Source of the DNA: an uncultured Ruminococcus sp.
Lineage (GTDB): Bacteria > Bacillota > Clostridia > Oscillospirales > Acutalibacteraceae
Direction: 5' to 3'
Assembly: GCA_902773025.1 (NCBI GenBank)
Contig: CACYDC010000183.1
Coordinates: forward strand, 1 to 52,577
Length of the DNA: 52,577 bases
The notes under the pieces are model-generated. The model was not told where the DNA came from and ran no database searches. It saw only the letters and a program-made list of their open reading frames with translations. Shown piece after piece: positions 28,854 to 45,172 of the stretch. Position 1 is the stretch's first letter, and each line of letters begins with the position of its first letter. A program made the position numbers and the translations under genes.

Positions 28854-28902
28854 TACAGCTGAGTTTCGGTCATTATTTGTTATTATTTTTCGTTTAATAT
28901 AG

Positions 28903-29007: not shown

Positions 29008-29270
29008 TTTTGCCCTCCGAATTGACCGAACCATAGTAATATTTCGTCAAAAACACCAGTGTTAAGCTCGTAGTAAATGAAATTCTTATCCTTATATTCC
29101 ATAATTAAAGAGCATTTTTTTAACAGTCTGAGATGATAAGATAAAGCAGCAGGCGTAATTCCAAGTTTTTCGGATATTTCACCTGCATTGAGCTTACCGT
29201 CACGCAGAAGAATCAGAATATCTCTGCGCTGTGGGTCAGACAAGGCTTTGAAGGTTTCTGCAAGCCCCAT
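29004..29270 (-). CDS. ArsR-type winged-helix regulator of the SdpR autorepressor subfamily
   Basis: FKALSDPQRRDILILL ... AGEISEKLGITPAALSYHLRLLK ... IYYELN. About 88 aa, as in SdpR-like proteins. Confidence 0.88.
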   Translation of the reverse strand: MGLAETFKALSDPQRRDILILLRDGKLNAGEISEKLGITPAALSYHLRLLKKCSLIMEYKDKNFIYYELNTGVFDEILLWFGQFGGQK

Positions 29271-29442: not shown

Positions 29443-29471
29443 TTGACAAAACGTAAATAAGAAATTATAAT
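29443..29471 (+). promoter_or_regulatory. Consensus sigma-A promoter of the glycopolymer operon
   Basis: TTGACA (29443-29448), 17 nt, TATAAT (29466-29471). Predicted TSS is near 29478, about 290 nt upstream of the first CDS. Confidence 0.65.
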
Positions 29472-29480
29472 ATTACTGAA

Positions 29481-29595
29481 TTATAACCGCAAAGTATGTC
29501 CCCCATCTTTAAGGCGGCGGAGGACATATTGCTTGTTGAAAGCAAAGCTTTTAACCGCAAAGTTTTGTCACTCTCAGTTAAGGCAGGGAGTGCTA
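29481..29595 (+). repeat. Tandem leader modules: AACCGCAAAGT + hairpin, twice, separated by TTGCTTGTTGAAAGCAAAGCTTTT
   Basis: 11-mer at 29485-29495 and 29553-29563. 24-mer at 29529-29552. Hairpins at 29496-29527 and 29569-29592 have different stems, and both loops contain TTAAGGC. Confidence 0.7.
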
Positions 29596-29766
29596 TACAA
29601 TAGTAGTACAGTGGAGTCAGGCCAAGCACTGAACTGAATTAAACAAAGGGATTGATTTTACTTGCATTGAGCGAAGTATATAATCAGTAATTAAATGGGG
29701 AACTATATTTGCGGTGTTGTGAATCAGTTTATCCCTTATTTCAAAAATATATAGGGCTGTGTTGTT

Positions 29767-30870
29767 ATGACGGTTTCTTTGTGTATTATTGCATATAACG
29801 AACAGAATTCATTACCATCGCTGATGAGTGATGTCCTTGCTCAGACATATCCTCATGAACTAACAGAAATTGTATTTGTTGACAGCTGTTCATCGGATGG
29901 TACTCGTGATTTATTTGAATCATTTTCAGAAAAATATAAAAATGAATATTTGAGAATTGCGGTTCTGGATAATCCCCGAAAAATCCAGGCTGCCGGTTGG
30001 AATACAGCAATAAGCTATGCAGGCGGAGATGTTATAATCCGGGTTGATGCGCATGCATCAATTCCGCCGCAGTTTATCGAAAATAATATAAAAACGATAG
30101 AGTCGGGGGAATATGTGTGCGGCGGGGCAAGGCCGAGCAATATTTCAGAGCCTACACCATACCGTGAAATGCTTCTTCTTGCAGAAAGCTCAATGTTCGG
30201 CAGTTCGATAGCATCCTACAGAAGACAAGGAAATGGTAAAGAATATGTTTCGTCACTGTTTCATGGAGCATACCGCAGAGAGGTATTTGGAAAGGTCGGA
30301 GGATTTAACGAATCTTTGGGGAGAACCGAGGATAATGAGCTGCATTGGCGAATAAGGCAGAATGGATATAAAATATGCAAGAGTGATGACATTATATCAT
30401 ATCAGAACATAAGGCCGACACTGTTTTCAATGCTCAGACAGAAATTTGCAAACGGAAAATGGATTGGGCTGACATTGGGTGTATGTCCGGGATGTCTGTC
30501 TGTTTTTCATTTTGTACCATTATGCTTTGTAATGGCAATAATAGTATGTATTGCGCTGATGGTGGTAGGTCTGTCAACAGGTATGAGCGTGTTTTCACTG
30601 CCAATAATTGGTTTAGGTATAATGTACGCAGCGGCTGATTTGCTGATGTCAGTGTCTGCAATAATATCTGTAAAGCAGTTCAATGGGTATATGCTGCTGC
30701 TGTGGTTAATATTTCCGATGCTCCATATTATATACGGGGTCGGCACAATAACAGGATTGATATATATGCCGATATGGAAAAGCCGGCTGGACGGTTCGGC
30801 AGAAAGAGAAATCGAAGAAGTTAAGAAACGAATAGCAGAAAAAACTGCAAAAACGGAGGAAATAACATGA
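29767..30870 (+). CDS. Family 2 glycosyltransferase (ExoA-like) with C-terminal membrane domain
   Basis: SLCIIAYNE ... VDSCSSDGT ... RVDAHA GT-A core, followed by about four TM helices. Confidence 0.85.
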   Translation: MTVSLCIIAYNEQNSLPSLMSDVLAQTYPHELTEIVFVDSCSSDGTRDLFESFSEKYKNEYLRIAVLDNPRKIQAAGWNTAISYAGGDVIIRVDAHASIPPQFIENNIKTIESGEYVCGGARPSNISEPTPYREMLLLAESSMFGSSIASYRRQGNGKEYVSSLFHGAYRREVFGKVGGFNESLGRTEDNELHWRIRQNGYKICKSDDIISYQNIRPTLFSMLRQKFANGKWIGLTLGVCPGCLSVFHFVPLCFVMAIIVCIALMVVGLSTGMSVFSLPIIGLGIMYAAADLLMSVSAIISVKQFNGYMLLLWLIFPMLHIIYGVGTITGLIYMPIWKSRLDGSAEREIEEVKKRIAEKTAKTEEIT

Positions 30871-31799
30871 CAAGTACTGATCTTGTGTTTGACAAAAGGG
30901 GAAGGGCAGCAAGATTTTTTGATGGAATAAAAGATGCATTGCTGCAAATACCAAGAGAGCACAGAGGTTTTGGAAAGCAGACAATAATGCTTGCAAAACA
31001 GGATCTTCTAAAAACATATAAAGGCGCAGTTATAGGACCGTTATGGGCGCTTGTAAAGCCGGTGTTTCAGTTATTTGTATATTGGTTTGCGTTCTCTATA
31101 CTAAGAGGAACATCGAGCAAGGAAATGGGCGTTGAGTATTTTCTGTTTATAATGTCAGGATTTGTGCCCTGGTTTTTCATGAGTGATTGTATTTCTCGCG
31201 GATCAAAATCTATAGCCGATAACCGGCAATTTGTAAATAAGGTATCATTTCCGGTATCTGTAATAATGACATATACTACGATATCAAAGTTTTACATTCA
31301 TGTATTTCTTTTATCACTGAGTTATCTTTATATAACACTTGTCGGAGGGATACACCCGAGTATTTATAACATACAGCTGATTTTTCTTGCACCGCTGATG
31401 TTTTTGTTTTTCCTTGCGCTGACGTGGTCTCTTGCGCCGATGAGTGCATTCAGTAAGGATTTTTCAAATTTTATAAATACAATAATGTCTGGATTGTTCT
31501 GGTTATCTGCGATCGGATACGATTCGTATACACTTAAAAATGAAACGATCCGAAATATTCTTTTGTTTAATCCGCTTGCTTATTTTGTAAATGCATACAG
31601 AAAAGCATTGATATGTAACTGCTGGTTCTGGGAAGCGCCGAATTATCCTGCAAAGCAGGCAGAAAAAATGCTTGCAGACGGTATACATCTCCATCCTTTA
31701 TGGGAGAATGCGATATTGATAGCAGAGTTTGCTTTTGTAATAATACTTGGCATTTACAATTATAACCGCTTGAGAAAAGATCTTCCGGATGTACTTTGA
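30867..31799 (+). CDS. ABC-2 type polysaccharide/teichoic acid export permease (TagG/Wzm-like)
   Basis: The N-terminus ...KQDLLKTYKGAVIGPLWALVKP... is typical of TagG/Wzm, with six TM segments. ATGA overlap with the upstream gene. Confidence 0.85.
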   Translation: MTSTDLVFDKRGRAARFFDGIKDALLQIPREHRGFGKQTIMLAKQDLLKTYKGAVIGPLWALVKPVFQLFVYWFAFSILRGTSSKEMGVEYFLFIMSGFVPWFFMSDCISRGSKSIADNRQFVNKVSFPVSVIMTYTTISKFYIHVFLLSLSYLYITLVGGIHPSIYNIQLIFLAPLMFLFFLALTWSLAPMSAFSKDFSNFINTIMSGLFWLSAIGYDSYTLKNETIRNILLFNPLAYFVNAYRKALICNCWFWEAPNYPAKQAEKMLADGIHLHPLWENAILIAEFAFVIILGIYNYNRLRKDLPDVL

Positions 31800-33076
31800 T
31801 AGAGGACATAAAGCGCGTTTGTTCGGCTGAAAACGAAGGCGGCATTGCCGCCATGGATAATAAAAGGGTGTGTGGAATGGAGGAAACGCTGTTTCAGAAG
31901 CTGCAAAGAGTCAGATTCGGAGATATCGGACATATGTTTCTGTTTTTGTTTGCATTGCCGATTGCTCTGATATATAAGCTTTTTCGCAGGGATATGTGGC
32001 TGATATGTGATAATAAAAACGAAGCAAGAGATAATGGATATCATCTGTATAAGTATATACGAAAGAATTATCCGGAGCAGGATGCAGTATATGCAATTAG
32101 TAAGAGATCTCCCGATTATGCAAGAGTTAAGGATCTTGGCAAGGTAGTGAATTACGGGACATTTCTTCATTGGATATTCTATCTTGCTGCAAAAAAGAAT
32201 ATCAGTTCACAAAAAGGCGGAAAGCCGAATGCAGCGGTGTGTTATTTTCTTGAGGTAAACGGAATACTAAAAAACACGAGGGTATTTTTGCAGCATGGTA
32301 TAGTAAAGGATGATATGCCGTGGCTTTATTATGTAAATACAAAGATGAGACTGTTTGTATGTACCTCGGCAAGAGAGGTAAAATATGTAAACGAAAACTT
32401 CGGATATCCGGAGGGATATGTAAAACAGCTTGGAATATGCCGTTTTGATGCATTGTTTGATATGCAGGTCAAGGAAAAACAGATACTTCTGATGCCCACA
32501 TGGAGAAGCTGGATAGCTACGCCGACAACGGCATCATATGAGATAGAAGATATATCCGAATTCAGGAATACGGAATTTTTCAAAGGCTGGAATGAATTTC
32601 TGGGAAGCGAAAGGCTTCACAATATTCTGAAGAAAAATGATTTAAAGCTTATATTTTATCCTCACAGAGATATGCAGGCGTTTCTCAAATATTTTGATAT
32701 AAGAAATGAAAATATAATAATTGCAAAATGGCCTGAATATGACGTTCAGGAGCTTTTGAAGGAAAGCAGATACCTTATTACAGATTATTCGAGTATAGCA
32801 ATGGATTTTGCATATATGAAAAAAAGACTTATGTACTATCAGTTTGATTATCAGGATTTTCGTAAGGGGCAGTATCCGGAAGGGTATTACAGCTACGAAA
32901 AAGACGGCTTCGGACCGGTATGCTATGAGCTTGATAAGGCATTAGATGAGCTTGAAGCAGCAATAAGTGAGAATTATGAGAATAAAGAAATATATCTCAG
33001 ACGTCACAGTGATTTTTTTGATTTATATGATAATCAGAACTGCGAAAGAAACTATCAGGCAATCAAGGAGTTATAA
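31796..33076 (+). CDS. CDP-glycerol glycerophosphotransferase family protein (TagB/TagF-like), stand-alone
   Basis: ARDNGYHLYKY, LLMPTWRSW and ITDYSSIAMDFAYM motifs. The start is uncertain (TTG 31796, or ATG 31853/31877). Confidence 0.85.
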   Translation: MIEDIKRVCSAENEGGIAAMDNKRVCGMEETLFQKLQRVRFGDIGHMFLFLFALPIALIYKLFRRDMWLICDNKNEARDNGYHLYKYIRKNYPEQDAVYAISKRSPDYARVKDLGKVVNYGTFLHWIFYLAAKKNISSQKGGKPNAAVCYFLEVNGILKNTRVFLQHGIVKDDMPWLYYVNTKMRLFVCTSAREVKYVNENFGYPEGYVKQLGICRFDALFDMQVKEKQILLMPTWRSWIATPTTASYEIEDISEFRNTEFFKGWNEFLGSERLHNILKKNDLKLIFYPHRDMQAFLKYFDIRNENIIIAKWPEYDVQELLKESRYLITDYSSIAMDFAYMKKRLMYYQFDYQDFRKGQYPEGYYSYEKDGFGPVCYELDKALDELEAAISENYENKEIYLRRHSDFFDLYDNQNCERNYQAIKEL

Positions 33077-33078
33077 AT

Positions 33079-34089
33079 ATGAATACAGCAGAGGCACAAA
33101 ACAAAATAGATTTCGTGCTGATCTGGGTAGACGGAAACGACCCTGAGTGGCTGGAAGAAAAGAGCCGGTATGACGGAAGTGCTGTTACCGGAAATACCGC
33201 AGTACGTTTTCGTGATTGGGACAATCTTCAGTATTGGTTCCGAGGAGTGGAGAGATTTGCGCCATGGGTCAATAAAGTGCATTTTGTAACATGGGGACAT
33301 TTGCCGAAATGGCTTGATACAACCCATCCAAAACTTCATATTGTGAATCACAGGGATTATATACCGCACGAATATTTGCCGACATTCAATGCAAATCCGA
33401 TTGAAGTAAATCTGCACAGGATCCCAGGACTTAGCGAACAGTTTGTTTTCTTTAATGACGATATGTTTATAACTGCTCCGGTAAAGCCTGAGGATTTCTT
33501 TAAAAATGGACGGCCATGTGATGCATATGGACTGAATTGTATATATTTTGTAGAGGACAGTGTCGGACATATCAATGGCTGTGATCTTGAACAGATCAAT
33601 AATCATTTCAAAAGCAGCAAGGCAGTGATACGGGCAAACAGAAGAAAATGGTTCAATGTAAAAAACGGACTGAGAAATAATATAAAGACCATGATGCTAA
33701 GCACATGGGATTGGTTTCCCGGATTTTATTATGATCATTTGCCCAGCAGTTTTCTGAGATCCTCATTTGAAGAAGTATGGGAAAATTGCGGCGAAGCGCT
33801 AGATAATACATGTCGCTGCCGTTTCAGAAGTGGTTTGAATGTCAATCAATGGCTGATAAAGTACTGGCAGCTGTGCAAGGGAATAAGTGTTCCAAGAAAG
33901 GAACCCGGAAAAGCATATCAGCTTAAAAATGAAGAGATTCCCAAAGCGTTGGCTGCGCTGAGAAACGGAACACATAAACTTATTTGTCTTAATGATACGG
34001 CTATGACAGCGGATTTTGAAAGGATTTGCAGAGAAGTTAAGGATAACTTTCAGAAGCTATTGCCCGAGAAATCTGCGTTTGAAAAATAA
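33079..34089 (+). CDS. Stealth family hexose-1-phosphate transferase, paralogue 1
   Basis: CR1 IDFVLIWVDGNDPEW. CR2/CR3 RFRDWDNLQYWFRGVERFAPWVNKVHFVTWGHLPKWL ... LPTFNANPIEVNLHRIPGLSEQFVFFNDDMF. Confidence 0.8.
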   Translation: MNTAEAQNKIDFVLIWVDGNDPEWLEEKSRYDGSAVTGNTAVRFRDWDNLQYWFRGVERFAPWVNKVHFVTWGHLPKWLDTTHPKLHIVNHRDYIPHEYLPTFNANPIEVNLHRIPGLSEQFVFFNDDMFITAPVKPEDFFKNGRPCDAYGLNCIYFVEDSVGHINGCDLEQINNHFKSSKAVIRANRRKWFNVKNGLRNNIKTMMLSTWDWFPGFYYDHLPSSFLRSSFEEVWENCGEALDNTCRCRFRSGLNVNQWLIKYWQLCKGISVPRKEPGKAYQLKNEEIPKALAALRNGTHKLICLNDTAMTADFERICREVKDNFQKLLPEKSAFEK

Positions 34090-34110
34090 TGGTATTAAGG
34101 AGATATGGAT

Positions 34111-35265
34111 ATGAAGCTTAGCTTGTCGAAAAATGATACTCTTGTAATAAAGGGAGTAGCTATTATTTTTCTAGTTTTTTACCATAGTATGGCAACAAAA
34201 CAAAGACTGCTGGGACATGATATAAGTTTTTTTCCGTTTACCAATTATTATGCATTTTATATATTTGAGAGTATGAATGTATGTGTCGGTACATTTGCAT
34301 TTATGTCATCATTTGGACTGACAAGAACAATTACTCATAAATATCTGAAAAACGGCAAATCTTCGTTAGGTGCTGCTGAAAGTACAGATTTTCTGACGAG
34401 GAGAACTATTTCGCTGATGATGGCTTTTTTTATTCCTTTTGTTGCGTGTACATCAGTATCGCTGATATTTGCGCACCATAATCCATACGGACACGGCGAA
34501 ACATTTGTATTGAATCTGATAATGGATATGTTAGGATTTGCAGGCGCACTGGGCACACCGATGATGGTAGGCACATGGTGGTATATGAGTTTTGCGCTGA
34601 TTATCATATTCCTTATGCCAATGACAGTAAATCTGTACAGAAAACATGGTATAGGAGTACTGATTCCGTTTATAGTACTTCCACTGCTTATAGACGCTAA
34701 ATTCTACAATGGAACAACACTGAACAATATGACACGCTGGCTGTTGTGTATTCCCTTCGGAGTAATGTTTGCGGACGGAAATATATTTGAACAAATGAAG
34801 GAAATGACAATAGGAAAGAATAAAGTACTGTCTAAAATTGTCAAATTTATTCTCTGGACAGCGATACTTTTGCTGGCTTTTCGCCTGAGAAAGCAGGTAT
34901 GGACATGGAAATTTGCATATTACATTATCAGTACCGTACTTCCTGTTATATTTGTATACTGGTTGTATGAGTTTGTATGCGGAGTTCCGATTATAAATAA
35001 GCTGTTTGCATTTTTCGGAAAATATTCCTCTGATATATTTTTTATGCATACCTTTATCAGAGCAGTATGGTTCCCTGATTTTACGTATTCACTGAAATAC
35101 TGGTATGCTGTATTTGCATTTGTAATGGGCGCATCGCTTGTAATGGCAATAGTTGCTGATCTTTTCAGAAAGCTGATAAGCTGGGGAAAGCTTACATCGT
35201 TTGTTTCTGAAAAAGCAAGCTGTCTGACTGCAAAGGCGCTGCCGTTACAGACCAAAGACGCATGA
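34111..35265 (+). CDS. Acyltransferase family 3 (AT3) integral membrane O-acyltransferase
   Basis: About 10 TM segments and the N-terminal IKGVAIIFLVFYH motif typical of AT3. Confidence 0.8.
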   Translation: MKLSLSKNDTLVIKGVAIIFLVFYHSMATKQRLLGHDISFFPFTNYYAFYIFESMNVCVGTFAFMSSFGLTRTITHKYLKNGKSSLGAAESTDFLTRRTISLMMAFFIPFVACTSVSLIFAHHNPYGHGETFVLNLIMDMLGFAGALGTPMMVGTWWYMSFALIIIFLMPMTVNLYRKHGIGVLIPFIVLPLLIDAKFYNGTTLNNMTRWLLCIPFGVMFADGNIFEQMKEMTIGKNKVLSKIVKFILWTAILLLAFRLRKQVWTWKFAYYIISTVLPVIFVYWLYEFVCGVPIINKLFAFFGKYSSDIFFMHTFIRAVWFPDFTYSLKYWYAVFAFVMGASLVMAIVADLFRKLISWGKLTSFVSEKASCLTAKALPLQTKDA

Positions 35266-35369
35266 TATATTAGTGATGAATTTATGCTGACGATTAGTTT
35301 AATGATATACCTAGTATGCCGGGATTCTGAACCTGAAGCGCAGTGTAAAATTGAAACGAGGATAAAGTG

Positions 35370-36374
35370 ATGAAAAATATTGATAAAATTGATTTTGTCA
35401 TGATATGGGTCGACGGAAATGATCCGGAATGGCAAAAGGAAAAAAATAAATATGATTCATCTGACGAAAAGGGTGACAGTACTGTTGTCCGTTACAGAAG
35501 CTGGGATAATCTTCAATATTGGTTCAGAGGTGTGGAAAAATTTGCGCCATGGGTAAACAAGATACATTTTGTTACATGGGGACATCTTCCGCCGTGGCTG
35601 AATAAGAATCATCCTAAGCTTAACATCGTTAATCATAAGGATTATATTCCCGAAAAGTATCTTCCGACATTCAATGCAAATACAATCGAGCTTAATTTTC
35701 ACCGTATTGAAGGGCTTGCAGAGCAGTTTGTGTATTTCAACGACGATATGTTTATAACTGATTATGTCAGACCGGAGGATTTTTTCCGGGGCGGCAGACC
35801 GATGGATACTTATTCGCTCGACTGTATATTTTTTGGTAAAAAGAGCGCAGGATTTTTTAACGGAAATGATATTGAGCTTATCAATATCAATTTTGATAAA
35901 CGAAAATGTATGAAGCGTGATTTTATGAAATGGTATAGCCTTAAAAATGGTTTGAAAAGGGTTATAAAGACAAATGCGCTGAATATGTGGCCGTGGTTCC
36001 CGGGAATATATTATAATCATTTGCCAAGTAATTTTCTTAAGGATACATTTGTCAGGGTGTGGGAAAAAGAAGAAGAAACTCTTGACAATACCTGTAAAGA
36101 TAAATTTCGTACAAAATCAAATTGTAATCAATGGCTTATGAAATTCTGGCAGCTTGCCGAGGGTACGCCGGTTCCGAGAAGTACAAAAATCGGCAGATGT
36201 TTTCATATCAAGGATAATATATGGGATAAAGCGCTTTCATCGATTGAAAACGGAAGATACAGACTTATTTGTATTAATGATACAATATATACGAAGGATT
36301 TTGAATTACAGAAACAGCAGGTAATAAATGCATTTGATAAGCTTTTGCCTGAAAAATCAGAATTTGAAATATGA
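35370..36374 (+). CDS. Stealth family hexose-1-phosphate transferase, paralogue 2
   Basis: Same CR1-CR4 pattern as 33079-34089, and more than half of the residues are identical by eye. Confidence 0.8.
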   Translation: MKNIDKIDFVMIWVDGNDPEWQKEKNKYDSSDEKGDSTVVRYRSWDNLQYWFRGVEKFAPWVNKIHFVTWGHLPPWLNKNHPKLNIVNHKDYIPEKYLPTFNANTIELNFHRIEGLAEQFVYFNDDMFITDYVRPEDFFRGGRPMDTYSLDCIFFGKKSAGFFNGNDIELININFDKRKCMKRDFMKWYSLKNGLKRVIKTNALNMWPWFPGIYYNHLPSNFLKDTFVRVWEKEEETLDNTCKDKFRTKSNCNQWLMKFWQLAEGTPVPRSTKIGRCFHIKDNIWDKALSSIENGRYRLICINDTIYTKDFELQKQQVINAFDKLLPEKSEFEI

Positions 36375-36391
36375 TAGCTGAGGAGAGTAAT

Positions 36392-39082
36392 ATGGAACAG
36401 AACTGGAAATATCTGATCTCTGTCGTAATGCCAGTGTATAACACCGAAAAATTTCTGAGGCAGTCGGTAGACAGCGTTATTTCGCAAACACTCGGTTTTG
36501 AAAAAAACATCCAGCTGATACTCGTAAACGACGGCAGTACAGATACAAGCGAAGAGATTTGTCTTGAATATAAGGATAAATATCCGGAGAATGTTGTATA
36601 TGTAAAACAGGAAAACGTCGGAGTCAGTGCGGCAAGAAATAATGGTATTGCTTATATTGAAGGTAAATATGTAAATTTTCTGGATAGTGACGACTGTTGG
36701 AATGAAGATGCATTAGAAAAGCTGTATCAGTTTTTCGAGGAAAATTATGAAAGCATAGATATAGTTGCCGCCAGAAAAAAGCTGTTTGATGGAGCAACGG
36801 GCTATCATGGACTTGATTATAAGTTTGCTAAAACCGGAGTAATAGATTTGTGTGAAAGCTATGATATAGTTCATATGGATGTTACAAGCTCACTCATCAA
36901 AAATGAGGCAATAGGAGAGATAAGATTCAGTACTAATCTCAGGTACGGTGAAGATGCATGTTTTGTACAGACGATTCTCCTGAATAAATGTGCTATCGGA
37001 GTAGTCAGAGAAGCAGAGCATCAGTACAGAATGAGAACGGATGGAACTTCAGCACTTCAGAAAGAAGGCGGTTCGGAAAGCTATTATTTTGATTCGCCGG
37101 TATATTTTCATAAATATCTGATAGAGCTGTCGAAGCAGATGTATGGAGAGGTAAAAAAATTCATACAGTATGTCATAATGTACGATATAACATGGCGTGT
37201 AAAAAAACCTGTATATAAGCTGTTGCCTGAGGATAAAGCAAGTCAATACAAGGACTTGATAGTTGGGATACTTCAGGAAATAGAAGATGTAGTGATATAC
37301 AAGCAGCGCAGTATATATATGAATATGAAGATGTATTGTTTGTCATTGAAGTACGGTCATGATGTACGTAAGGATTTAAAATACGATTCAGGAAGAATAA
37401 TGTATAAAGATTTCGTAACAATAGATCTGGCTTCAGCGAAAACACTTCTTATATGGGACTATTTTGAACTTCATGGCAATATACTTCGTCTTGAGGGAAA
37501 AGACAACTGTTGGATGAGAGGAAATGATTACAATTATTATGCTAAGGTGGGAGGAGAGATATATTATCCTTCCTATGTAGATTGTCCTAAATTTGACCTC
37601 ATAACAATGGAAGGCAGAGTAAATAAGGGAAGAGCAGTAATATATGAAATACATCTTAACCCTGATAAAGAAACAAAAATATCGTTCTTTTATCGTAAGG
37701 GTAATGATACAAAAGAAATCAGCACATCGCTTGGAAGGTTTTCGCATCTTCCAAAGGTAGAGGGCGGCTATTATGCAAGAGGGAAGTTTATTATACAGCC
37801 GGATAAAAACGGCGTGATAGTAAAGCCGTACAGTGATGAACTGAGAGATGAACTCGAAGAAAATTATCGCTCAATTCTTTTGAGTCAGGGAATGGATGAA
37901 GCAGTTGAGTGGAGAAAGCGGTATTTTTCGGAAATAGAACATAAGCATAGGGAGATATGGCTGATTTCAGACAGAGCCTATGTTGCAAATGATAACGGCG
38001 AACATTTTTTCCGCTATATGAACAAATGGCAGCATAGAAAAATGATAGATACCTATTTTAATATAAACGAGGAGAGCGCCGATTATGAGCGAATGAAAAA
38101 AATAGGTAAAGTTATCCCGTATGATACTGATGAGTATAAAATGAAGTTTTTGCTTGCGGATAAGATAATATCGTCGAGCGCGTCGGATTATCTGTTTAAT
38201 CCATTCGGAGATATGAGGAAATATCTTATAGATTTGATTAGTTTTGAATTTGTATATCTAAAGCATGGAATAATAAAGGACGATATGTCGGGATGGCTGA
38301 ATCGTTATAATAAAAATATAAGTATGATGGTGACCGCTGCAATACCTGAGTATTTGTCAATAGTAAACGGTAATTATTGTATGACAAAGGATATACCTGT
38401 AATAACAGGTTTGACGCGATACGATGAACTCTACAGAAAAAGCAAGAAAAAGCATCCGAAGAAAAAAATACTGATAGTGCCGACATGGCGTCAGAGTATA
38501 AAGGGAAGCTTCGATGCAAAGCAGAATAAGAGCGTATATTTTGATAAATTCAAAGAAACAGAGTATTTCAGATTTTATAATGACCTTATTAACAATGAGC
38601 ATTTGCTTGATGTAATGAGAGAGAACGGATATACAGGACTATTGTGTATGCATCCTATGCACAGTGAACAATGGAAGGATTTCCAGAGTAATGATGTATT
38701 CAGTGTGAATGAGGGATATGTAGATTATCAGAATGAATTTGTAAGCAGTTCAGTATTGGTAACAGATTATTCAAGCGTTGCATTTGATTTTGCATATCTT
38801 CATAAGCCGGTGGTATATACACAGTTCGATAAGGAAGAATTCTACAAGAAACACACATATAATGAGGGTTATTTTGATTATGAGCGTGACGGTTTCGGTC
38901 CCGTATGCTATGATGCAGAAACTGCAGTGGAAGAGCTTATTCAGCTGATAGAAAACGGCTGTGCTGAAAATGATAAATATCTTAAACGAATAGATGATTT
39001 TTATCCATATCATGATTCTCATTGCTGCAGACGAGTATATGATAATATAAAGGACCTGAAATATAAATACGGAGTAGTATGA
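36392..39082 (+). CDS. Bifunctional GT2 glycosyltransferase / TagF-like CDP-glycerol glycerophosphotransferase (putative teichoic-acid-like polymerase)
   Basis: N-terminal GT-A (VVMPVYN ... NDGSTD ... FLDSDD). C-terminal TagF motifs (ANDNGEHFFRY, IVPTWRQS, VTDYSSVAFDFAYL). Confidence 0.88.
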   Translation: MEQNWKYLISVVMPVYNTEKFLRQSVDSVISQTLGFEKNIQLILVNDGSTDTSEEICLEYKDKYPENVVYVKQENVGVSAARNNGIAYIEGKYVNFLDSDDCWNEDALEKLYQFFEENYESIDIVAARKKLFDGATGYHGLDYKFAKTGVIDLCESYDIVHMDVTSSLIKNEAIGEIRFSTNLRYGEDACFVQTILLNKCAIGVVREAEHQYRMRTDGTSALQKEGGSESYYFDSPVYFHKYLIELSKQMYGEVKKFIQYVIMYDITWRVKKPVYKLLPEDKASQYKDLIVGILQEIEDVVIYKQRSIYMNMKMYCLSLKYGHDVRKDLKYDSGRIMYKDFVTIDLASAKTLLIWDYFELHGNILRLEGKDNCWMRGNDYNYYAKVGGEIYYPSYVDCPKFDLITMEGRVNKGRAVIYEIHLNPDKETKISFFYRKGNDTKEISTSLGRFSHLPKVEGGYYARGKFIIQPDKNGVIVKPYSDELRDELEENYRSILLSQGMDEAVEWRKRYFSEIEHKHREIWLISDRAYVANDNGEHFFRYMNKWQHRKMIDTYFNINEESADYERMKKIGKVIPYDTDEYKMKFLLADKIISSSASDYLFNPFGDMRKYLIDLISFEFVYLKHGIIKDDMSGWLNRYNKNISMMVTAAIPEYLSIVNGNYCMTKDIPVITGLTRYDELYRKSKKKHPKKKILIVPTWRQSIKGSFDAKQNKSVYFDKFKETEYFRFYNDLINNEHLLDVMRENGYTGLLCMHPMHSEQWKDFQSNDVFSVNEGYVDYQNEFVSSSVLVTDYSSVAFDFAYLHKPVVYTQFDKEEFYKKHTYNEGYFDYERDGFGPVCYDAETAVEELIQLIENGCAENDKYLKRIDDFYPYHDSHCCRRVYDNIKDLKYKYGVV

Positions 39083-40104
39083 TGGAAAAAGAATATTTAG
39101 TTTCGGTCGTAATTCCTGTTTATAAAGTGGAAGCATGTCTTTCGCAGACAGTAGAATCTGTTTTAGCTCAGACTATCGGTTTTGAAGAGAATATCCAGAT
39201 AATATTCGTAAACGACGGCAGTCCGGATAACAGTGAAGAGATTTGTCTTGAATATCAGGACAGATATCCTGATAATATTGTGTACCTGAAAAAGCAAAAC
39301 GGTGGAGTCAGTTCTGCAAGAAATGAAGGAATACCGTATATACGCGGTAAATATACAAATTTTCTTGATAGTGATGATTTATGGGAAAAGGATGCATTCA
39401 GGCATATGATAAGATTGTTTGACGAAAACTATGAGAAGACGGATGTTGTCAGTGCGAGAAAACAATTCTTTGAAGCAAGACAGGGTTGGCATCATCTTGA
39501 TTACAGATTTGAAAAAACAAAAATAGCCGATCTCACACGGGAATTTGATTTTGTACAGCTTGATGTAACCGGAGCAATGATAAAAACAGAAGCGATCGGA
39601 GAACACAGATTTTCCGAAAAATTGCAATATGGTGAGGATGCAGCTTTTGTCAGTACAATACTGCTAGAGAAGAGAACACTCGGAGTCTGCCGTGAAGCAG
39701 TTCATATGTATCGGAAAAGAAGCGACGAAAGTTCAGCGCTGCAAAATGAAAATTCAAATCTGAGCTATTACTTTGATTCACCAAAGTATTTTCATGAATA
39801 TTTGTTTTCGCTGTCCGAGGAAAAATATGGATATGTAGAACGGTTTATACAATACACGGTAATGTATGATATATCATGGAGAGTCAGAAAGAATGTATCA
39901 TCATATCTGACAGATGAACTATATGAAAGATACAGCAAAATTATTCTTGATCTTCTGAAAAGGATAGATGATAAAGTAATATTAAAACAAAGAAATCTGT
40001 GGAAGAAGCAAAAGCTATACTGTCTTATGAAAAAGCGGGGTATGGAACGGACAGCAGGGCTTTATGCAAAGCTGAGCAAAACACGGATAATGTTCAATAA
40101 ATAG
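39079..40104 (+). CDS. GT2 glycosyltransferase, a truncated paralogue of the flanking fusion genes with no TagF domain
   Basis: Collinear with the first ~320 aa of 36392-39082 and 40213-42903, then stops. ATGA overlap upstream and a ~100-nt non-coding gap downstream. Confidence 0.7.
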   Translation: MMEKEYLVSVVIPVYKVEACLSQTVESVLAQTIGFEENIQIIFVNDGSPDNSEEICLEYQDRYPDNIVYLKKQNGGVSSARNEGIPYIRGKYTNFLDSDDLWEKDAFRHMIRLFDENYEKTDVVSARKQFFEARQGWHHLDYRFEKTKIADLTREFDFVQLDVTGAMIKTEAIGEHRFSEKLQYGEDAAFVSTILLEKRTLGVCREAVHMYRKRSDESSALQNENSNLSYYFDSPKYFHEYLFSLSEEKYGYVERFIQYTVMYDISWRVRKNVSSYLTDELYERYSKIILDLLKRIDDKVILKQRNLWKKQKLYCLMKKRGMERTAGLYAKLSKTRIMFNK

Positions 40105-40212
40105 AATGGTTTCAAAATAAGCATCGGATGATTATGAGCTGTATTGCAAAAAACAATACAGTTGTTCGGGGCAGAAAGCCTTGATAATATTTAAAAATTA
40201 CAGGTGATGTAT

Positions 40213-42903
40213 ATGAAGGATTATAAATTCAAGATCTCAGTCGTAATACCGGTATACAATGTGGAAAAATATCTTGCTGAAACACTGGATTCTGTGATAG
40301 GCCAAAGCATAGGCTTTGAAGAGAATATACAGATGATACTCGTGAATGACGGCAGTCCTGACAATAGTGAGGAGATCTGTCTGGAATATCAAAGCCGATA
40401 TCCTGACAATATTGTATATGTAAAAAAGGAAAACGGAGGAGTAAGCTCCGCAAGAAACGAAGGGCTGAAATATGTCGAAGGAAAGTACGTGAATTTTCTT
40501 GATAGTGACGATATCTGGAGAGAAAGGGCAATTGAGATTGCTCTTGACTATTTTGATAAACATTATGACGAGATAGATGTTGTAGCTGCGAGAAAAAGAT
40601 TTTTTGACGCAGATAAGAGCTTTCATAAACTTGACTATAAGTTTAAGAAAACTAAGATCGTTGATCTCAGAGATGAGTATGAATTTATCCAGATGGATGT
40701 CACGGGAGCGTTTATCAAAGCAGAGGCGATCGGAGATACACGTTTCAGTACTGACCTGAAATACGGAGAGGACGCTCAATTCATTAATACTATAATTCTT
40801 GAAAAATGCATGCTTGGAGTATGCAGAGAGGCAATGCATTGGTACCGAAAAAGATCCGATGACAGTTCAGCGCTACAGAATGAGCTAAAAAGCGAAAGCT
40901 ACTACTTCAATACTCCGAAATATCTTCACCAATATTTGATAGACTTGTCGGTAAAAAAATACGGAAAGGTCTTAAAATTCATACAGTTCATGATAATGTA
41001 TGATATATCCTGGAGATTAAAAAAGAACCCCGCAAACATTCTGGAATATCTTACGCAGGAACAGTATGAGGAGTATTGTGACATACTCAAAAACCTGATA
41101 AAACAGCTTGACGACAGAGTTATTTTCAAGCAGAAAGAGCTGTTTATGAATCAAAAAATGTTCTGCCTGTGCCTGAAGCATGGAACTGATATAAGAGAAG
41201 AACTGGAATATGATCATAGTAATCTCCTGTATAAAAACCTTATAACTATGAATCTCAATAAGGCAAAAACAAACATTATATGGTTTTTTATGGATGTCAA
41301 GGATGATGTGCTTTACCTGGAAGGAAAGGACAATTTCTGGCTTAACGAGGATCAATATGAGTTTTTTGCAAAAGTCGGAGATAAAGAATATCACCCGACA
41401 TACTATAATGCACCCGCGTTTGACAGCAGTACGGTATTCGGTTTGCTTCGCAAGGGACGAGCTGTCAGGCTTGAAATACCGCTTACAGCAGGAGAAAAAT
41501 CAATAATACAGTTTTATTTCAGATTCAAGGATAATGATCGTCTGATATATACAACTATGGGAAAATTCACGCATATACCGCCGACATGGGGCGGATATTA
41601 TGCAAAAGATGATTATCTGATAAAGCTTACGGGAAAATGCCTTGGTGTATATCCTTATTCAAAAGAGCTTCACAATAAGTTTGAAAACTTCTATTGTGAG
41701 CATCTGAAGAAAATTAATAAGGAATATCTGATAAAGTACAGAAAGCTTTATAAGGTTATGAAAAGCTTCTATAAAAATAAGAAGATATGGCTTATATCAG
41801 ACAGAACAAATAAGGCAAATGATAACGGTGAGCATATGTTCCGTTATATCAACGCTCACGGAGCTAAAAATATCGAAGCGTTTTATTGTATACGCAAGGA
41901 TTGTGCGGATTATCAGAAAATGAAACGAATAGGAAAGGTTTTGCCTTACGAAACGCCGAAATACAGACTGTATTTTCTGATTGCTGATAAGATCATATCA
42001 TCATCCGGCGGAGAATATGTGATCAATGCATTCGGCGGTGACAGAAAATATCTTTATGACCTGTATAAATTTGATTATGTATTTTTACAGCACGGAGTAA
42101 CAAAGGATGATATCTCAGGATGGATCAATCGTTTCAATAAAAATATGAGGCTGATAGTAACGGCAGGAAAGCCGGAACAGAAATCATTCTGTGAACCGAA
42201 TTATGCATATCCTCCGGAGGTACCGCTTCTTACAGGTTTCCCAAGACATGACAATCTGCTGAGATTGCAGGAATTAAAGCCTGTTGAAAAAAAGCTTCTT
42301 ATAATACCTACATGGCGAAAGAGCATAGAGGGGAGCTATAATCCTTCTACGACCGAAAGCATATATTTTGAAGGGTTTAAGGATACGGAATATTATAAAT
42401 TCTATAATTCACTTATAAACGATGAGCGTCTGTGTAAATGCATGAAGAAGCACGGATATAAGGGTGTGCTTTGTATGCATCCGATCCACAGCACTCAATG
42501 GGTTGACTTCAAACCAAACGAAGTATTCAGTATTAATCATGGAAATGTGGATTATCAGAGTGAATTTACATCTTCCGCATTACTCGTAACCGACTATTCA
42601 AGCGTATTCTTTGATTTCGGCTTTTTAAAGAAACCGGTCGTATATTGTCAGTTTGACAAGGAAGATTTTTTTGCCGGACATACTTACGATGAAGGTTATT
42701 TCAGCTATGAGGAAAATGGGTTTGGTCCGGTGTGCTATGATTTGGATGAAACCGTAAAGGCAATAATTTCAAATATAGAAAACGGATGCCGTAATTCTGA
42801 GAAATATATAAAAAGAATTGAAGATTTCTATGAATACTTTGATTCAAACAGTTGCAAACGTGTTTACGAAGGAATTCTCAAACTTAAGGATCTTAAGCCT
42901 TGA
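40213..42903 (+). CDS. Bifunctional GT2 glycosyltransferase / TagF-like CDP-glycerol glycerophosphotransferase, second full-length paralogue
   Basis: Same architecture: VVIPVYN ... NDGSPD ... FLDSDD; ANDNGEHMFRY, IIPTWRKS, VTDYSSVFFDFGFL. Confidence 0.88.
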   Translation: MKDYKFKISVVIPVYNVEKYLAETLDSVIGQSIGFEENIQMILVNDGSPDNSEEICLEYQSRYPDNIVYVKKENGGVSSARNEGLKYVEGKYVNFLDSDDIWRERAIEIALDYFDKHYDEIDVVAARKRFFDADKSFHKLDYKFKKTKIVDLRDEYEFIQMDVTGAFIKAEAIGDTRFSTDLKYGEDAQFINTIILEKCMLGVCREAMHWYRKRSDDSSALQNELKSESYYFNTPKYLHQYLIDLSVKKYGKVLKFIQFMIMYDISWRLKKNPANILEYLTQEQYEEYCDILKNLIKQLDDRVIFKQKELFMNQKMFCLCLKHGTDIREELEYDHSNLLYKNLITMNLNKAKTNIIWFFMDVKDDVLYLEGKDNFWLNEDQYEFFAKVGDKEYHPTYYNAPAFDSSTVFGLLRKGRAVRLEIPLTAGEKSIIQFYFRFKDNDRLIYTTMGKFTHIPPTWGGYYAKDDYLIKLTGKCLGVYPYSKELHNKFENFYCEHLKKINKEYLIKYRKLYKVMKSFYKNKKIWLISDRTNKANDNGEHMFRYINAHGAKNIEAFYCIRKDCADYQKMKRIGKVLPYETPKYRLYFLIADKIISSSGGEYVINAFGGDRKYLYDLYKFDYVFLQHGVTKDDISGWINRFNKNMRLIVTAGKPEQKSFCEPNYAYPPEVPLLTGFPRHDNLLRLQELKPVEKKLLIIPTWRKSIEGSYNPSTTESIYFEGFKDTEYYKFYNSLINDERLCKCMKKHGYKGVLCMHPIHSTQWVDFKPNEVFSINHGNVDYQSEFTSSALLVTDYSSVFFDFGFLKKPVVYCQFDKEDFFAGHTYDEGYFSYEENGFGPVCYDLDETVKAIISNIENGCRNSEKYIKRIEDFYEYFDSNSCKRVYEGILKLKDLKP

Positions 42904-42925
42904 GAATAATTTAGGAGATGAAGAA

Positions 42926-44719
42926 ATGAAAGAGCTTGAGTATCCTTTTGACAGTGAATATATAATAAAGAAGAGAAAATCGCTCAGACGTACGCTGCTT
43001 TCTGATGGAAGCAGCCGTCTAAAAAAAAAGATAGCGGTATTTGGCGGTTCTACAACTAATGATATAGTAGTTTATCTTGACTTGTTTTTACTCAACCATG
43101 GAATTGAAGCTGAATTTTACCAGTCTGAATACGGACAGTACTGGCAGGATGCAATGTTTCCGAGCGAGGAGCTTATAAACTTTGCGCCGGATATAGTGTA
43201 TATTCATACTACGGGAAGAAATATTCTGAATTCACCGTCAAGTTCGGATACGAGGGAACAGGTAAAAGAGCTTCTGAATAGTGAATATAGTAAATTTGAG
43301 CAGATGTGGGATAAAATCAGAGAAACCTATCATTGTCCGATAATACAGAATAATTTTGAAATGCCGTTTTATCGTCTGATGGGAAATAGGGACTGCTCAG
43401 ATTACAGAGGACGTTCAAATTTTCTTACCAGACTTAACAGTATGTTTTATGAGTATTCAGAAAAACATGAAGGCTTCTACATTAATGATATCAATTTTAT
43501 ATCCGCATCATATGGAATAAAACAATGGAGTGATCCTTCGTACTGGAATATGTACAAATATGCGATGTGTATAGAAGCAATACCGGAGTTTTCCTTTAAC
43601 CTGTCGAATATTATAAAGTCTGTATTCGGAAAGAATAAAAAGGCGCTTGCGCTTGATCTTGATAATACACTATGGGGCGGAGTTGTAGGAGATGATGGAG
43701 TTGATGGGATACAGATCGGCCAGGAAACAGGAGTTGCCCAGAGCTATTATGAATTCCAGAGTTATGTAAAGTCGTTGAAATCGATCGGAGTAATATTGAC
43801 AGTTTGTTCAAAAAACGATCATGAAAATGCAATAGCGGGTTTGAATCATCCGGAAGGTGCGCTTAAGCCTGAGGATTTTATTATCATTAAAGCAAACTGG
43901 GAAAACAAAGACAGGAATATAATAGAAACTGCGAGTGAATTGAATATCATGACAGATGCAATAGTATTTGCAGACGATAATCCTGCCGAGCGTGAAATAG
44001 TCAGGGCGCAGGTGAACGGTGTTTCAGTTCCAGTTATGGATGGAGTAGAGAATTATATAGTAAACATTGACCGGAACGGATATTTTGAAGTCACAAATTT
44101 CAGCGCAGATGATATCAAGCGCAATGAAATGTATAAGGCAAATGCACAGCGGGCAGCACAACAGGCATCATTTGCAGATTACGGAGAATATCTGAGAAGT
44201 CTTGAGATGACGGCAGTTATAGATGATTTTATTCCAGTATATCTTCAAAGGATAACACAGCTTACGAATAAGAGCAATCAGTTTAATGTAACTACAAAGA
44301 GATACACACCGACAGAAATGGAGGCAGTATATCAGAGTGACGAATATATTCGTCTATACGGAAAGCTGATCGACAAATTCGGAGATAACGGAGTAGTGTC
44401 TGTAGTTATAGGGCATAAGAACGTTGAGATATTAGACATAGACCTATGGATAATGAGCTGTAGGGTATTGAAAAGAGATATGGAGCTTGCGATGCTTGAC
44501 AAAGTAGTTGAGCGGTGTAAAGCGTGTGGAATAGGGAAAATCAGGGGATATTATTATCCTACTGCCAAAAACAAAATGGTGCGTGAATTGTACGGTACCT
44601 TCGGATTTGAAAAAATCAGTGAGGACGAAAAAGGAAATACCGTATGGGAACTTGATATCAGCGGATATGAGCCAAAGAATCATGTTATTGATGTCAGAGA
44701 GAATTCAGAAGAAAAATAA
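42926..44719 (+). CDS. FkbH-like HAD-IIIC family protein (three-part: N-terminal domain, HAD-IIIC core, C-terminal GNAT-like domain)
   Basis: HAD motif I LDLDNTLWGGVVGDDG, CSKND and FADDNPAERE, with the C-terminal MSCRVLKRDME segment typical of FkbH-like proteins. RBS AGGAGA. Confidence 0.8.
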   Translation: MKELEYPFDSEYIIKKRKSLRRTLLSDGSSRLKKKIAVFGGSTTNDIVVYLDLFLLNHGIEAEFYQSEYGQYWQDAMFPSEELINFAPDIVYIHTTGRNILNSPSSSDTREQVKELLNSEYSKFEQMWDKIRETYHCPIIQNNFEMPFYRLMGNRDCSDYRGRSNFLTRLNSMFYEYSEKHEGFYINDINFISASYGIKQWSDPSYWNMYKYAMCIEAIPEFSFNLSNIIKSVFGKNKKALALDLDNTLWGGVVGDDGVDGIQIGQETGVAQSYYEFQSYVKSLKSIGVILTVCSKNDHENAIAGLNHPEGALKPEDFIIIKANWENKDRNIIETASELNIMTDAIVFADDNPAEREIVRAQVNGVSVPVMDGVENYIVNIDRNGYFEVTNFSADDIKRNEMYKANAQRAAQQASFADYGEYLRSLEMTAVIDDFIPVYLQRITQLTNKSNQFNVTTKRYTPTEMEAVYQSDEYIRLYGKLIDKFGDNGVVSVVIGHKNVEILDIDLWIMSCRVLKRDMELAMLDKVVERCKACGIGKIRGYYYPTAKNKMVRELYGTFGFEKISEDEKGNTVWELDISGYEPKNHVIDVRENSEEK

Positions 44720-44739
44720 AAAACGAAGGAGAAAAGACA

Positions 44740-44982
44740 ATGGACACAAAAACGATTTATGCAAGATTAAACAAGGTATTCAGAGATGTATTTGACGATG
44801 AGGATATTACAGTTGGTCCAAAGACTACAGCAAATGACATTGAGGACTGGGATAGCCTTGAGCATATCACATTAATGAGTGCTGTGCAGAGAGAATTCAG
44901 GGTAAAGTTCACAATGGGAGAAATATCATCCATGAAGAATGTCGGAGAAATGGCCGATATAATTGCTAAGAGGGCAAAGTGA
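44740..44982 (+). CDS. Acyl/peptidyl carrier protein
   Basis: 80 aa with the phosphopantetheine-attachment motif DWDSLEHITL. Confidence 0.8.
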   Translation: MDTKTIYARLNKVFRDVFDDEDITVGPKTTANDIEDWDSLEHITLMSAVQREFRVKFTMGEISSMKNVGEMADIIAKRAK

Positions 44983-45128
44983 TAAGATCTTTTGCTGAGT
45001 GAGTAATATCTTTGTTATGCAAAAAATCTTCGGAAATAAGTCTGTTATGCTGTTTTATAGTGAGCTAAGCGTTTTTTATATGCGAACGCTTATGCTCGGG
45101 CAACGGGCCGGTTTTTTGTTTTTCTGCT

Positions 45129-45172
45129 GTATCTCTATCCCGGTAGGGATAGAGATACTTCTTTGTATTTTT
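45129..45172 (+). terminator. Strong intrinsic terminator closing the glycopolymer operon
   Basis: Perfect 13-bp stem GTATCTCTATCCC / GGGATAGAGATAC, loop GGTA, then TTCTTTGTATTTTT. Confidence 0.85.

Follow-up and report, generated by a model that had tools for sequence, protein, structure and literature searches.

A locus of Stealth and TagF-like phosphotransferases predicted to build a phosphodiester-rich surface glycopolymer in an uncultured Ruminococcus

What surface polymer could be made by a bacterium that brings both known solutions to sugar-phosphate polymer assembly, Stealth and TagF-like enzymes, together in one putative operon? This question is raised by a 52,577-nucleotide (nt) stretch of DNA from an uncultured Ruminococcus sp. 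(assembly GCA_902773025.1, contig CACYDC010000183.1), referred to here as the window, in which positions 29767-44982 of the + strand carry eleven long open reading frames (ORFs), g1 to g11, all in the same direction. [quoted passage not shown] A first-pass annotation, made from the sequence alone, had proposed a wall or capsule glycopolymer with phosphodiester links, in a lineage of Clostridia that is uncharacterised in this respect. This proposal is reasonable: the enzyme families are confirmed, and no prior description was found in the literature. In our literature searches, no paper connected Stealth proteins with this clade or with teichoic acids of Gram-positive bacteria, and no description of the surface polymers of Ruminococcus bromii-type ruminococci came up.

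Stealth and TagF-like enzymes in one block of genes

The Stealth family is represented twice, by g4 (336 amino acids (aa), positions 33079-34089) and by g6 (335 aa, 35367-36374), which starts at a GTG with an ATG one codon later. Both proteins score above the Pfam cut-offs for Stealth_CR2 (155.2 and 152.1 bits, respectively; cut-off 39.4) and CR1 (39.4 and 36.6 bits; cut-off 27.2). In g4, CR4 (24.5 bits) and CR3 (20.5 bits) occur in the expected order just under their cut-offs of 27.4 and 24.2 bits, while in g6 CR4 reaches 22.6 bits, also under the cut-off, and CR3 is not reported at E<=0.01. The two proteins are 60% identical to each other, and in the Protein Data Bank (PDB) g4 matches GNPT (7dxi, 9e-30), M. 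tuberculosis CpsY (8j2n, 5e-29) and human GNPTAB (7s6n, 9e-29). The motifs WVDGNDP and FNDDMF of g4, the latter aligning to LNDDIF and SNDDMF, are conserved in g6. By family membership and intact motifs, g4 and g6 are probably both sugar-1-phosphate transferases, and a UDP-sugar donor is predicted for them. They share CR1 and CR2 and the WVDGxDP and NDD motifs with the N. meningitidis serogroup A and X polymerases, CpsY and the animal GlcNAc-1-phosphotransferase; unlike the characterised Stealth enzymes, they come as two paralogues of ~335 aa in a single locus, stand among TagF-like enzymes and have CR3 and CR4 regions below threshold.

The TagF-like family contributes three proteins. The first, g3, is a stand-alone phosphotransferase of ~400 aa (31877-33076), and the other two, g7 (903 aa, 36371-39082) and g9 (899 aa, 40204-42903), are bifunctional enzymes with an N-terminal GT-A glycosyltransferase module and a C-terminal TagF-like domain. 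All three cover positions ~10-366 of the 367 positions of the Glyphos_transf model (PF04464), with scores of 109.7, 138.3 and 144.6 bits for g3, g7 and g9 against a cut-off of 22.1, and their active-site motifs align to those of TarL and TagF. The ORF of g3 opens at a TTG at 31796, but its true start is likely the ATG at 31877, since homologues are 399-400 aa long. Its PDB matches are TarL (1.6e-7) and TagF (5e-4), it carries PTWR, His and TDYSS motifs, and with the size of TagB/TarF it is a candidate primase. In g7, Glycos_transf_2 (119 bits) spans residues 17-147, with a DSDD motif at residue 105, and Glyphos_transf spans residues 524-893, with PTWR, HP and TDYSS motifs. g9 is 52% identical to g7 over its full length and has the same equipment: Glycos_transf_2 (120 bits) with an N-terminal DSDD, followed by PTWR, HP-His and TDYSS. 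Across 27 homologues of g7 and g9, residues H632 (LQHG), W706/R707, H761, D799 and S801/S802 are invariant. In a profile of 27 members the first 345 positions align with N-domain residues 3-331 of S. epidermidis TagF (3l7i) and the C-terminus aligns with TarL; the GT-A module matches the chondroitin synthase K4CP, TarS and TarP in the PDB.

Between the two bifunctional genes lies g8 (341 aa, 39079-40104; Glycos_transf_2 113.5 bits), a stand-alone GT-A glycosyltransferase that is paralogous to their N-terminal modules (61% identical to residues 4-329 of g9 and 55% to residues 13-345 of g7), and between the two Stealth genes lies g5 (386 aa, 34105-35265; Acyl_transf_3 48.3 bits), an AT3-family integral-membrane O-acyltransferase with ~8 hydrophobic segments, a homologue of which is found in some related loci and is absent from others. 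The Stealth and TagF-family assignments of the first-pass annotation hold both in Pfam profile searches, where they lie above gathering scores, and in PDB comparisons, and the families that it had named amount to two Stealth proteins, three TagF-like domains, four GT2 modules and one AT3 protein.

Is this combination peculiar to the window? A scan of species-representative genomes with g4 returned 266 relatives, and the loci of the top 80 were mapped (related loci carry L numbers below). Nearly all of these 80 come from metagenome-assembled genomes (MAGs) of rumen or gut (uncultured Ruminococcus, Clostridia, Acutalibacteraceae and Candidatus Fimenecus); among them are also a Ruminococcus bromii assembly and R. 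intestinalis strain NSJ-71. Closest to the window are rumen MAGs labelled 'uncultured Ruminococcus sp.', the best match to g4 being 78-79% identical, and locus L002 shows a gene-by-gene synteny with the window that extends into the flanks, which places the window in a related rumen Ruminococcus. Exact copies of g4 were found only in the window and in one 2.1-kb ENA contig. In 77 of the 80 loci the Stealth gene has a TagF-like gene no more than 10 kb away, and in 47 of the 80 a TagF-like gene of 400 aa (TagF400) stands immediately upstream of it. Together, these counts indicate that the pairing of Stealth with TagF-like enzymes is a clade-wide design, and the locus is therefore not the oddity that the word 'hybrid' had implied. 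Among characterised capsules Stealth and TagF-like enzymes are described as separate solutions (PMC5974469), unlike in the window locus, where both occur.

Two architectures were distinguished among the relatives. In type A, the window type (30 loci), a membrane GT2 gene is followed by a TarG-like permease of 290-327 aa, TagF400 and Stealth, and then by variable genes: a GT-A/TagF-like gene of ~900 aa, preceded in some loci by AT3 and a further Stealth gene and followed in some by a GT-A and another GT-A/TagF-like gene and by MBOAT and DHHW genes, before FkbH and a carrier. In type B (40 loci, including those of R. bromii and R. intestinalis), a 260-aa permease, a TagH-like ATPase, TagF400 and Stealth precede variable genes, and FkbH is absent; examples are L022:7247-10993, L050:7171-10999 and L026, with ~37 others. 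Among relatives of the window the 5' block and the FkbH-carrier pair are conserved and the middle is variable, an arrangement suggesting that the repeat unit diversifies in the manner of serotypes. In gut and rumen, R. bromii-type ruminococci hold a keystone position in starch degradation. Sensitivity to phages, recognition by the immune system and adhesion to cells or substrate usually depend on surface glycopolymers, and it is therefore likely that a locus of this kind, conserved but with a variable middle, helps to determine ecology at the level of strains. The 266 relatives of g4 also form a useful set of natural variants, from which the rules of donor and acceptor choice could be derived and which could serve the enzymatic synthesis of phosphoglycans.

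Donors, export and the proposed pathway

The block opens with g1 (367 aa, 29767-30870; Glycos_transf_2 91.6 bits), a membrane-anchored GT2 glycosyltransferase whose hydrophobic residues 232-328 suggest three to four C-terminal transmembrane helices. Its nearest PDB entry is the membrane GT2 6yv7 (2e-13), followed by ArnC and DPMS, and its predicted acceptor is lipid-linked, such as a linkage unit. In all 30 window-type loci a g1 homologue stands before the permease gene. The permease of the window, g2 (310 aa, 30867-31799; ABC2_membrane 46.5 bits), is of the TarG/TagG-type ABC-2 export class, with PDB matches to TarG 6jbh (1.6e-24), to 9cfl (1e-25) and to Wzm-type permeases, and it gives the locus an export component that had gone unmentioned in the first-pass annotation.

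The nearest Gram-positive analogue of such a set of genes is the minor WTA pathway of B. subtilis 168 (GgaA/GgaB, TagGH and the TagO/TagA linkage unit). GgaB is an enzyme of ~900 aa with GT2 and TagF-like parts, and the minor teichoic acid is poly(glucosyl-N-acetylgalactosamine 1-phosphate), which is built from sugar-1-phosphate and contains no glycerol. GgaA commits and GgaB acts downstream, both building undecaprenyl-phosphate (UndP)-linked precursors on the WTA linkage unit (PMC11081497). The window locus resembles this pathway in its small TagF-family enzyme (g3), its TagG/TarG-type permease (g2) and, as predicted, a lipid-linked, ABC-exported polymer, and g7 and g9 are like GgaB by description, not by sequence comparison. 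It differs in having two Stealth enzymes, a membrane GT2, a second bifunctional paralogue, a free GT-A, an AT3 protein and an FkbH-acyl carrier protein (ACP) pair, and its permease, unlike B. subtilis TagGH, has no adjacent TagH ATPase.

By layout, g7 and g9 also resemble the capsule polymerases CslB, Cps12B, Cps1B and Ccs2: they are bipartite, with an N-terminal GT-A module bearing DXD and a C-terminal TagF-like domain, and are ~870-900 aa long (the criterion being >~830 aa). As in the CslB group, the GT-A module matches K4CP, the template in PMC5974469, the TagF active-site residues are conserved and export would depend on an ABC transporter. The setting is different, since the Gram-negative group 2 CslB-type capsules are found neither in a Gram-positive host nor in a TarG-type context, theirs being KpsM-type, and since they use one polymerase whereas the window locus has several phosphotransferases.

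Which phosphate-bearing group would then be transferred? [quoted passage not shown] CslB, Cps12B, Cps1B and Ccs2, the characterised enzymes of the GT-A/TagF-like layout, make poly(oligosaccharide phosphate), their TagF-like domain transferring hexose-phosphate, and the TagF-like/GT-B enzymes Cps3D and Cps7D make poly(glycosylglycerol phosphate), a CDP-glycerol synthase being predicted in their clusters (PMC5974469). We rate hexose- or sugar-1-phosphate above glycerol-phosphate for g7 and g9, because both have the GT-A/TagF-like layout and because no cytidylyltransferase was found among the scanned genes. By this analogy, g7 and g9 more likely transfer sugar-1-phosphate, and g7 is a candidate polymerase. 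The label 'glycerol-phosphate polymerases', under which the first-pass annotation had placed these enzymes, is unproven: their layout is that of the hexose-phosphate subgroup, and the scanned genes of the window and of the related loci include no CDP-glycerol synthase (TagD).

The other assignment, in which the TagF-like domains are CDP-glycerol-dependent, is possible but on balance unlikely. Together with the Stealth enzymes they would then make a mixed poly(glycerol-phosphate / glycosyl-1-phosphate) teichoic acid of the classical 'poly(polyol phosphate-glycosyl phosphate)' type, with the TagF400-Stealth dyad as an alternating polymerase pair. The position of TagF400 immediately upstream of Stealth in 47 of the 80 loci speaks for this assignment, as do Glyphos_transf matches far above the cut-off and the best NCBIfam matches of g3, g7 and g9, which are to TarF, TarB and TarL. 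These last matches are weak, and no locus protein reaches the cut-off of any NCBIfam teichoic-acid or exopolysaccharide equivalog, the teichoic-acid scores lying far below it (e.g. 47-53 bits against 550). Glycosylglycerol-phosphate enzymes of the TagF-like/GT-B kind are known (PMC5974469), and the type B locus L022 has one such architecture downstream, a TagF-like/GT-B (GT1) fusion with the layout of the glycosylglycerol-phosphate capsule polymerases; against this stand the GT-A/TagF-like layout of g7 and g9 themselves and the lack of a TagD-type cytidylyltransferase among the scanned ORFs of the window and the scanned genes of related loci.

In the pathway that we favour, the phosphodiester-rich heteroglycan, each step is a prediction built on the observed family assignments. 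Enzymes encoded elsewhere would provide a primer or linkage unit, and the conserved 5' block would extend it, g1 adding a sugar to the lipid-linked acceptor and g3 serving as a TagB/GgaA-like primase. g7 and g9 would then act as GgaB/CslB-type polymerases in which glycosyl transfer by the GT-A module alternates with sugar-phosphate or polyol-phosphate transfer by the TagF-like domain. g4 and g6 would insert further sugar-1-phosphate links, and g8 would add a side-chain or main-chain sugar. The polymer would be exported by g2 with an ATPase encoded elsewhere and O-acylated outside the cell by g5, the FkbH-ACP pair supplying a glycerate-derived acyl group as an optional decoration. Functions encoded outside the window would finally attach the product to peptidoglycan or retain it as a capsule. 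All proteins of the locus fall into known families, and taken together they follow the logic of a teichoic-acid-like polymer exported by an ABC transporter; three features are without a characterised counterpart, namely Stealth and TagF-like enzymes in one operon, a TarG-like permease coupled to a membrane GT2 and lacking an ATPase, and an FkbH-carrier pair in a glycan locus.

Several points weigh against this pathway. Firstly, the export step is incomplete as encoded: no TagH/TarH-type ATPase partner for g2 is found among the scanned ORFs of the window, and none of the 30 window-type loci has an ATPase beside the g2 homologue, although each of the 40 type B loci has a TagH-like ATPase beside its permease (205-224 bits on TagH models in L022). 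The partner may be encoded elsewhere. Secondly, the window contains no primer, LCP or nucleotide-sugar genes, so that the lipid-carrier and wall-attachment steps are assumptions. The first-pass annotation had noted the absence of a priming transferase, CDP-glycerol synthase, LCP ligase and flippase/polymerase pair, and this stands for the 37 long ORFs of the window that were scanned, among which no member of the TagO/WecA/WbaP, TagD, LCP, Wzx or Wzy families and no match to Glycos_transf_4, Bac_transf, Glyco_tran_WecG or LytR_cpsA_psr was found. TagO and LCP were not found in the flanks of the related loci either. Thirdly, the donors assigned to all five phosphotransferase domains derive from family and architecture, the GT-A/TagF-like rule derives from Gram-negative capsule enzymes, and a tagD gene elsewhere in the genome could supply CDP-glycerol. 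Lastly, no enzyme that would use the glyceryl-ACP predicted for the FkbH pair was identified in the window.

The only ABC ATPase of the window is encoded at 27656-28441 on the - strand, and was considered as the TarH counterpart. It was rejected as the obvious partner because it comes with an ABC2_membrane_3 permease of its own and shares only ~24% identity with TagH-like ATPases from type B loci.

A permease that lacks its own ATPase would also fit a locus that depends on another one. Could the genes decorate a different backbone polysaccharide, encoded elsewhere, with phosphate-linked oligosaccharide or teichoic-acid-like units, or make two polymers, one through g7 and one through g9? Type B loci with TagG and TagH occur in the clade, the RUG777 and RUG241 MAGs carry two Stealth loci each, and the locus itself holds no primer or linkage-unit genes; it has two full polymerase-type paralogues, 52% identical, and a middle that is modular and variable across relatives. 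We nevertheless consider this explanation improbable, as the locus has a TarG-like permease of its own and a conserved 5' block resembling a self-contained initiation and export module, and no backbone locus is available in its support.

More broadly, the R. bromii-related clade (Ruminococcus, Acutalibacteraceae and Ca. Fimenecus) might make a new class of serotype-variable wall polymers in which Stealth and TagF-like enzymes lay alternating or mixed phosphodiester links, with export in window-type loci by a TarG-like permease that is translationally coupled to a membrane GT2 and lacks a dedicated ATPase, and with a glycerate-derived ester added through FkbH and an 80-aa carrier. Taken as a whole, with all of its parts together, this proposal is unlikely.

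An FkbH-carrier pair and the MBOAT-DHHW cassette

The last two genes of the block, which the first-pass annotation had not mentioned, introduce a chemistry of a different kind. g10 (598 aa, 42926-44719) is an FkbH-family HAD-IIIC phosphatase/acyl-loading enzyme that scores 259.7 bits on TIGR01686 FkbH (cut-off 146.65), 58.8 bits on HAD-SF-IIIC (cut-off 35.75) and 42 bits on FkbH_N, and matches PDB entry 3slr at 6e-53. Its likely true start is the ATG at 42926, which is preceded by AGGAG, and its motifs DLDNT, CSKN, DDNP and MSCRV, the last with the conserved C-terminal Cys, are intact. In databases its homologues are named only 'HAD-IIIC family phosphatase'. g11 (80 aa, 44740-44982) is an acyl/peptidyl carrier protein with a DSL phosphopantetheine-serine motif, a PP-binding score of 19.8 bits, just under the cut-off of 20.8, weak full-length matches to NCBIfam ACP models and a PDB match to the putative ACP 2lml (5e-19). 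From these assignments, g10 is predicted to make a glyceryl thioester on g11. As in the FkbH/OzmB-type glyceryl-ACP synthases of polyketide pathways, FkbH scores above its cut-off, the HAD and Cys motifs are present and a dedicated small carrier lies directly downstream; unlike in those settings, the pair sits in a putative surface-glycan operon, and no ketosynthase, dehydrogenase or other polyketide gene was found near it.

In relatives the carrier gene always follows FkbH. The pair is optional, being absent from L005, L007, L009 and L040, and g10 has the lowest non-synonymous difference from L002 of all the genes compared (pN 0.065). MBOAT and DHHW, the latter a PatB1-family SGNH protein, precede the pair in L084-L090 and in all nine of the type A loci that are complete and carry FkbH. 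The resulting MBOAT-DHHW-FkbH-carrier cassette of four genes is seen in L010, L013-L016, L019, L029, L034 and L082-L090; many type A loci have it as their 3' end, and in Ca. Pseudoruminococcus (L082:6556-12063 and L083) it stands alone.

The first half of this cassette is missing from the window: tblastn with both proteins finds no trace of MBOAT or DHHW in it, and the gap between g9 and g10 is only 22 nt. L002 lacks them as well. In L086, whose middle genes are those of the window, MBOAT-DHHW is retained and follows a terminator-like hairpin; at L086:6841-7060, after the g9-like gene, a G+C-rich hairpin is followed by a T-run (CTCCCCGTGAATAAGCGGGGAG...TTTTTTT). On the strength of this hairpin the four-gene cassette of L086 looks like a separate transcription unit, whereas the FkbH gene of the window looks as though it has been joined into the main operon.

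What might the cassette do? With a loading enzyme, a carrier, an MBOAT and an SGNH protein, it resembles the Dlt system (DltA, the MBOAT DltB, the carrier DltC, the SGNH protein DltD, and DltX), and in pairing an MBOAT with a PatB1-family SGNH protein (DHHW) it resembles PatA/PatB-type O-acetylation (B. cereus PatA1/PatB1). Unlike in Dlt, FkbH takes the place of the adenylating DltA, so that the acyl group would be derived from glycerate and not be D-alanine, and the window itself has neither MBOAT nor DHHW. MBOAT/SGNH envelope acylation pathways other than Dlt are described as working without a carrier protein (PMC12148441). The four-gene cassette may be a system of envelope acylation that depends on a carrier protein and differs from Dlt. 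The only PDB matches of the MBOAT protein are to DltB (1e-22). Its C-terminal end, FLYFRF, corresponds to the fused FXYXXF acyl-shuttle, which is typical of PatA-type MBOATs using acyl-CoA (PMC12148441), and on this ground it may simply acetylate. FkbH-ACP may feed the MBOAT or may act independently of it. If the pair does acylate a wall polymer, this would contradict the view that Dlt is the only one of the MBOAT-SGNH systems to use a carrier (PMC12148441), and glycerate-ester delivery would be the second carrier-protein-dependent acylation system of the cell envelope after Dlt. Literature searches found nothing on point for FkbH with MBOAT, for FkbH with polysaccharide or for glycosyl-1-phosphate polymers.

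Boundaries, leader and neighbouring genes

The block is bounded as the first-pass annotation had described, by a consensus promoter and a strong terminator. A sigma-70-type promoter, TTGACA-17 nt-TATAAT, lies at 29443-29471 on the + strand with a 12/12 match, and it is kept base for base, together with the bases that follow (TATAATATTACTGAATTAT), in the syntenic loci L001-L003. On the same strand, at 45129-45158, stands an intrinsic terminator with a 13-bp stem of which 6 pairs are G-C and with a T-rich tail, preceded by a weaker terminator at 45094-45108. The ATGA stop/start overlaps reported at 30867 (g1/g2), 36371 (g6/g7) and 39079 (g7/g8) are real. The gene number was one too high: eleven ORFs are found where twelve had been counted, and a search of the leader, the internal gaps and the 3' gap gave no credible twelfth. 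The block had also been called visibly more AT-rich than its flanks. The direction is right, with 37.5% G+C against 39.9% in the rest of the window, and the size is marginal, G+C at third codon positions (GC3) being the same (0.362 against 0.356 in the flanks). With GC3 at the level of the flanks, the composition gives no sign of a foreign origin, and a foreign island is rejected on this ground and because the locus occupies the same site in L001 and L002 (rluB, ABC pair, locus).

Between promoter and g1 lies a 5' leader of ~295 nt (29472-29766, + strand), which consists mostly of extra DNA absent from the closest relatives: the leaders of L001-L003 are only ~25-60 nt long, and the window carries ~250 nt more. 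This extra DNA contains two copies of a box, TT(A/T)TAACCGCAAAGT, each followed by a hairpin, and a hairpin, GCTTGTTGAAAGCAAAGC, that runs into TTTTAA. The box occurs a third time, with the same hairpin, in the divIVA-lspA intergenic region at 11957-12155 of the window. Boxes and hairpin are absent from all 85 related loci searched, and the leader insert is therefore genome-specific; judged by its sequence, it looks like a small repeat of the miniature inverted-repeat transposable element (MITE) or repetitive extragenic palindrome (REP) kind. Most of the leader is bracketed by an imperfect inverted repeat of 21 nt (29486-29506 / 29695-29715, 16/21 matches), the score of which was reached in 1 of 200 shuffles. 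Possible explanations are an RNA stem formed over a long range, the termini of a mobile element and a switch that works by inversion; no recombinase was found near the leader, and no sequence in the alternative orientation was found for comparison. A riboswitch or known leader RNA was considered and rejected, since Rfam gives nothing at gathering scores and only chance-level matches at E<=10. The fold z-score of the whole leader is only -1.46.

Could the locus, with its interrupted leader and missing partners, be a decaying or non-functional remnant? It would then have lost its ATPase and MBOAT-DHHW, and its leader would have been broken up by a repeat element with a terminator-like hairpin. 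The missing TagH partner, the deletion of MBOAT-DHHW relative to L086 with its same middle genes, and the ~250 nt of additional leader DNA, in which the hairpin GCTTGTTGAAAGCAAAGC runs into TTTT, can all be put forward in its favour. All eleven ORFs are intact, however, with conserved catalytic motifs, and relative to L002 the genes of the locus show only 0.065-0.20 non-synonymous differences per site at saturated synonymous sites, a pattern of purifying selection on genes that are maintained. The ATPase-less layout, moreover, is common to all 30 window-type loci, which belong to different species, and is thus a stable design and not a recent loss. We consider decay highly improbable.

The block is embedded in housekeeping genes. 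Upstream are dnaE, corA, miaA, sepF, divIVA, lspA, efp, scpAB, a D-Ala-D-Ala carboxypeptidase gene and rluB; downstream are aroA, aroC, pheA and genes for a VanY-domain protein and a Mur ligase. Directly upstream, at 26474-29270 on the - strand, lies a divergent operon driven by a second perfect sigma-70 promoter (29332-29304, - strand). Its products are a regulator of the ArsR family, a protein of 146 aa that has two hydrophobic segments and matches nothing in Pfam, and an ABC ATPase with an ABC2_membrane_3 permease. In L001 and L002 the ATPase and permease are kept, and the regulator and the 146-aa gene are absent. A 211-aa ORF with an HNH-endonuclease domain (25754-26389, + strand) overlaps the stop of rluB, and looks like an insertion in the lineage of the window because rluB adjoins the ABC permease gene directly in L002. 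Other genes stand upstream of type A loci elsewhere: a gene for a CotH-kinase-domain protein at L034:4521-6533, and one for a protein with a weak TIR_2 match at L016:4654-6558. Downstream of the aro genes of the window, and adjoining the Mur ligase gene, lies a gene (48822-50447, + strand) for a 541-aa protein with Big_2/Big_3 Ig-like repeats and a C-terminal VanY D-Ala-D-Ala carboxypeptidase domain.

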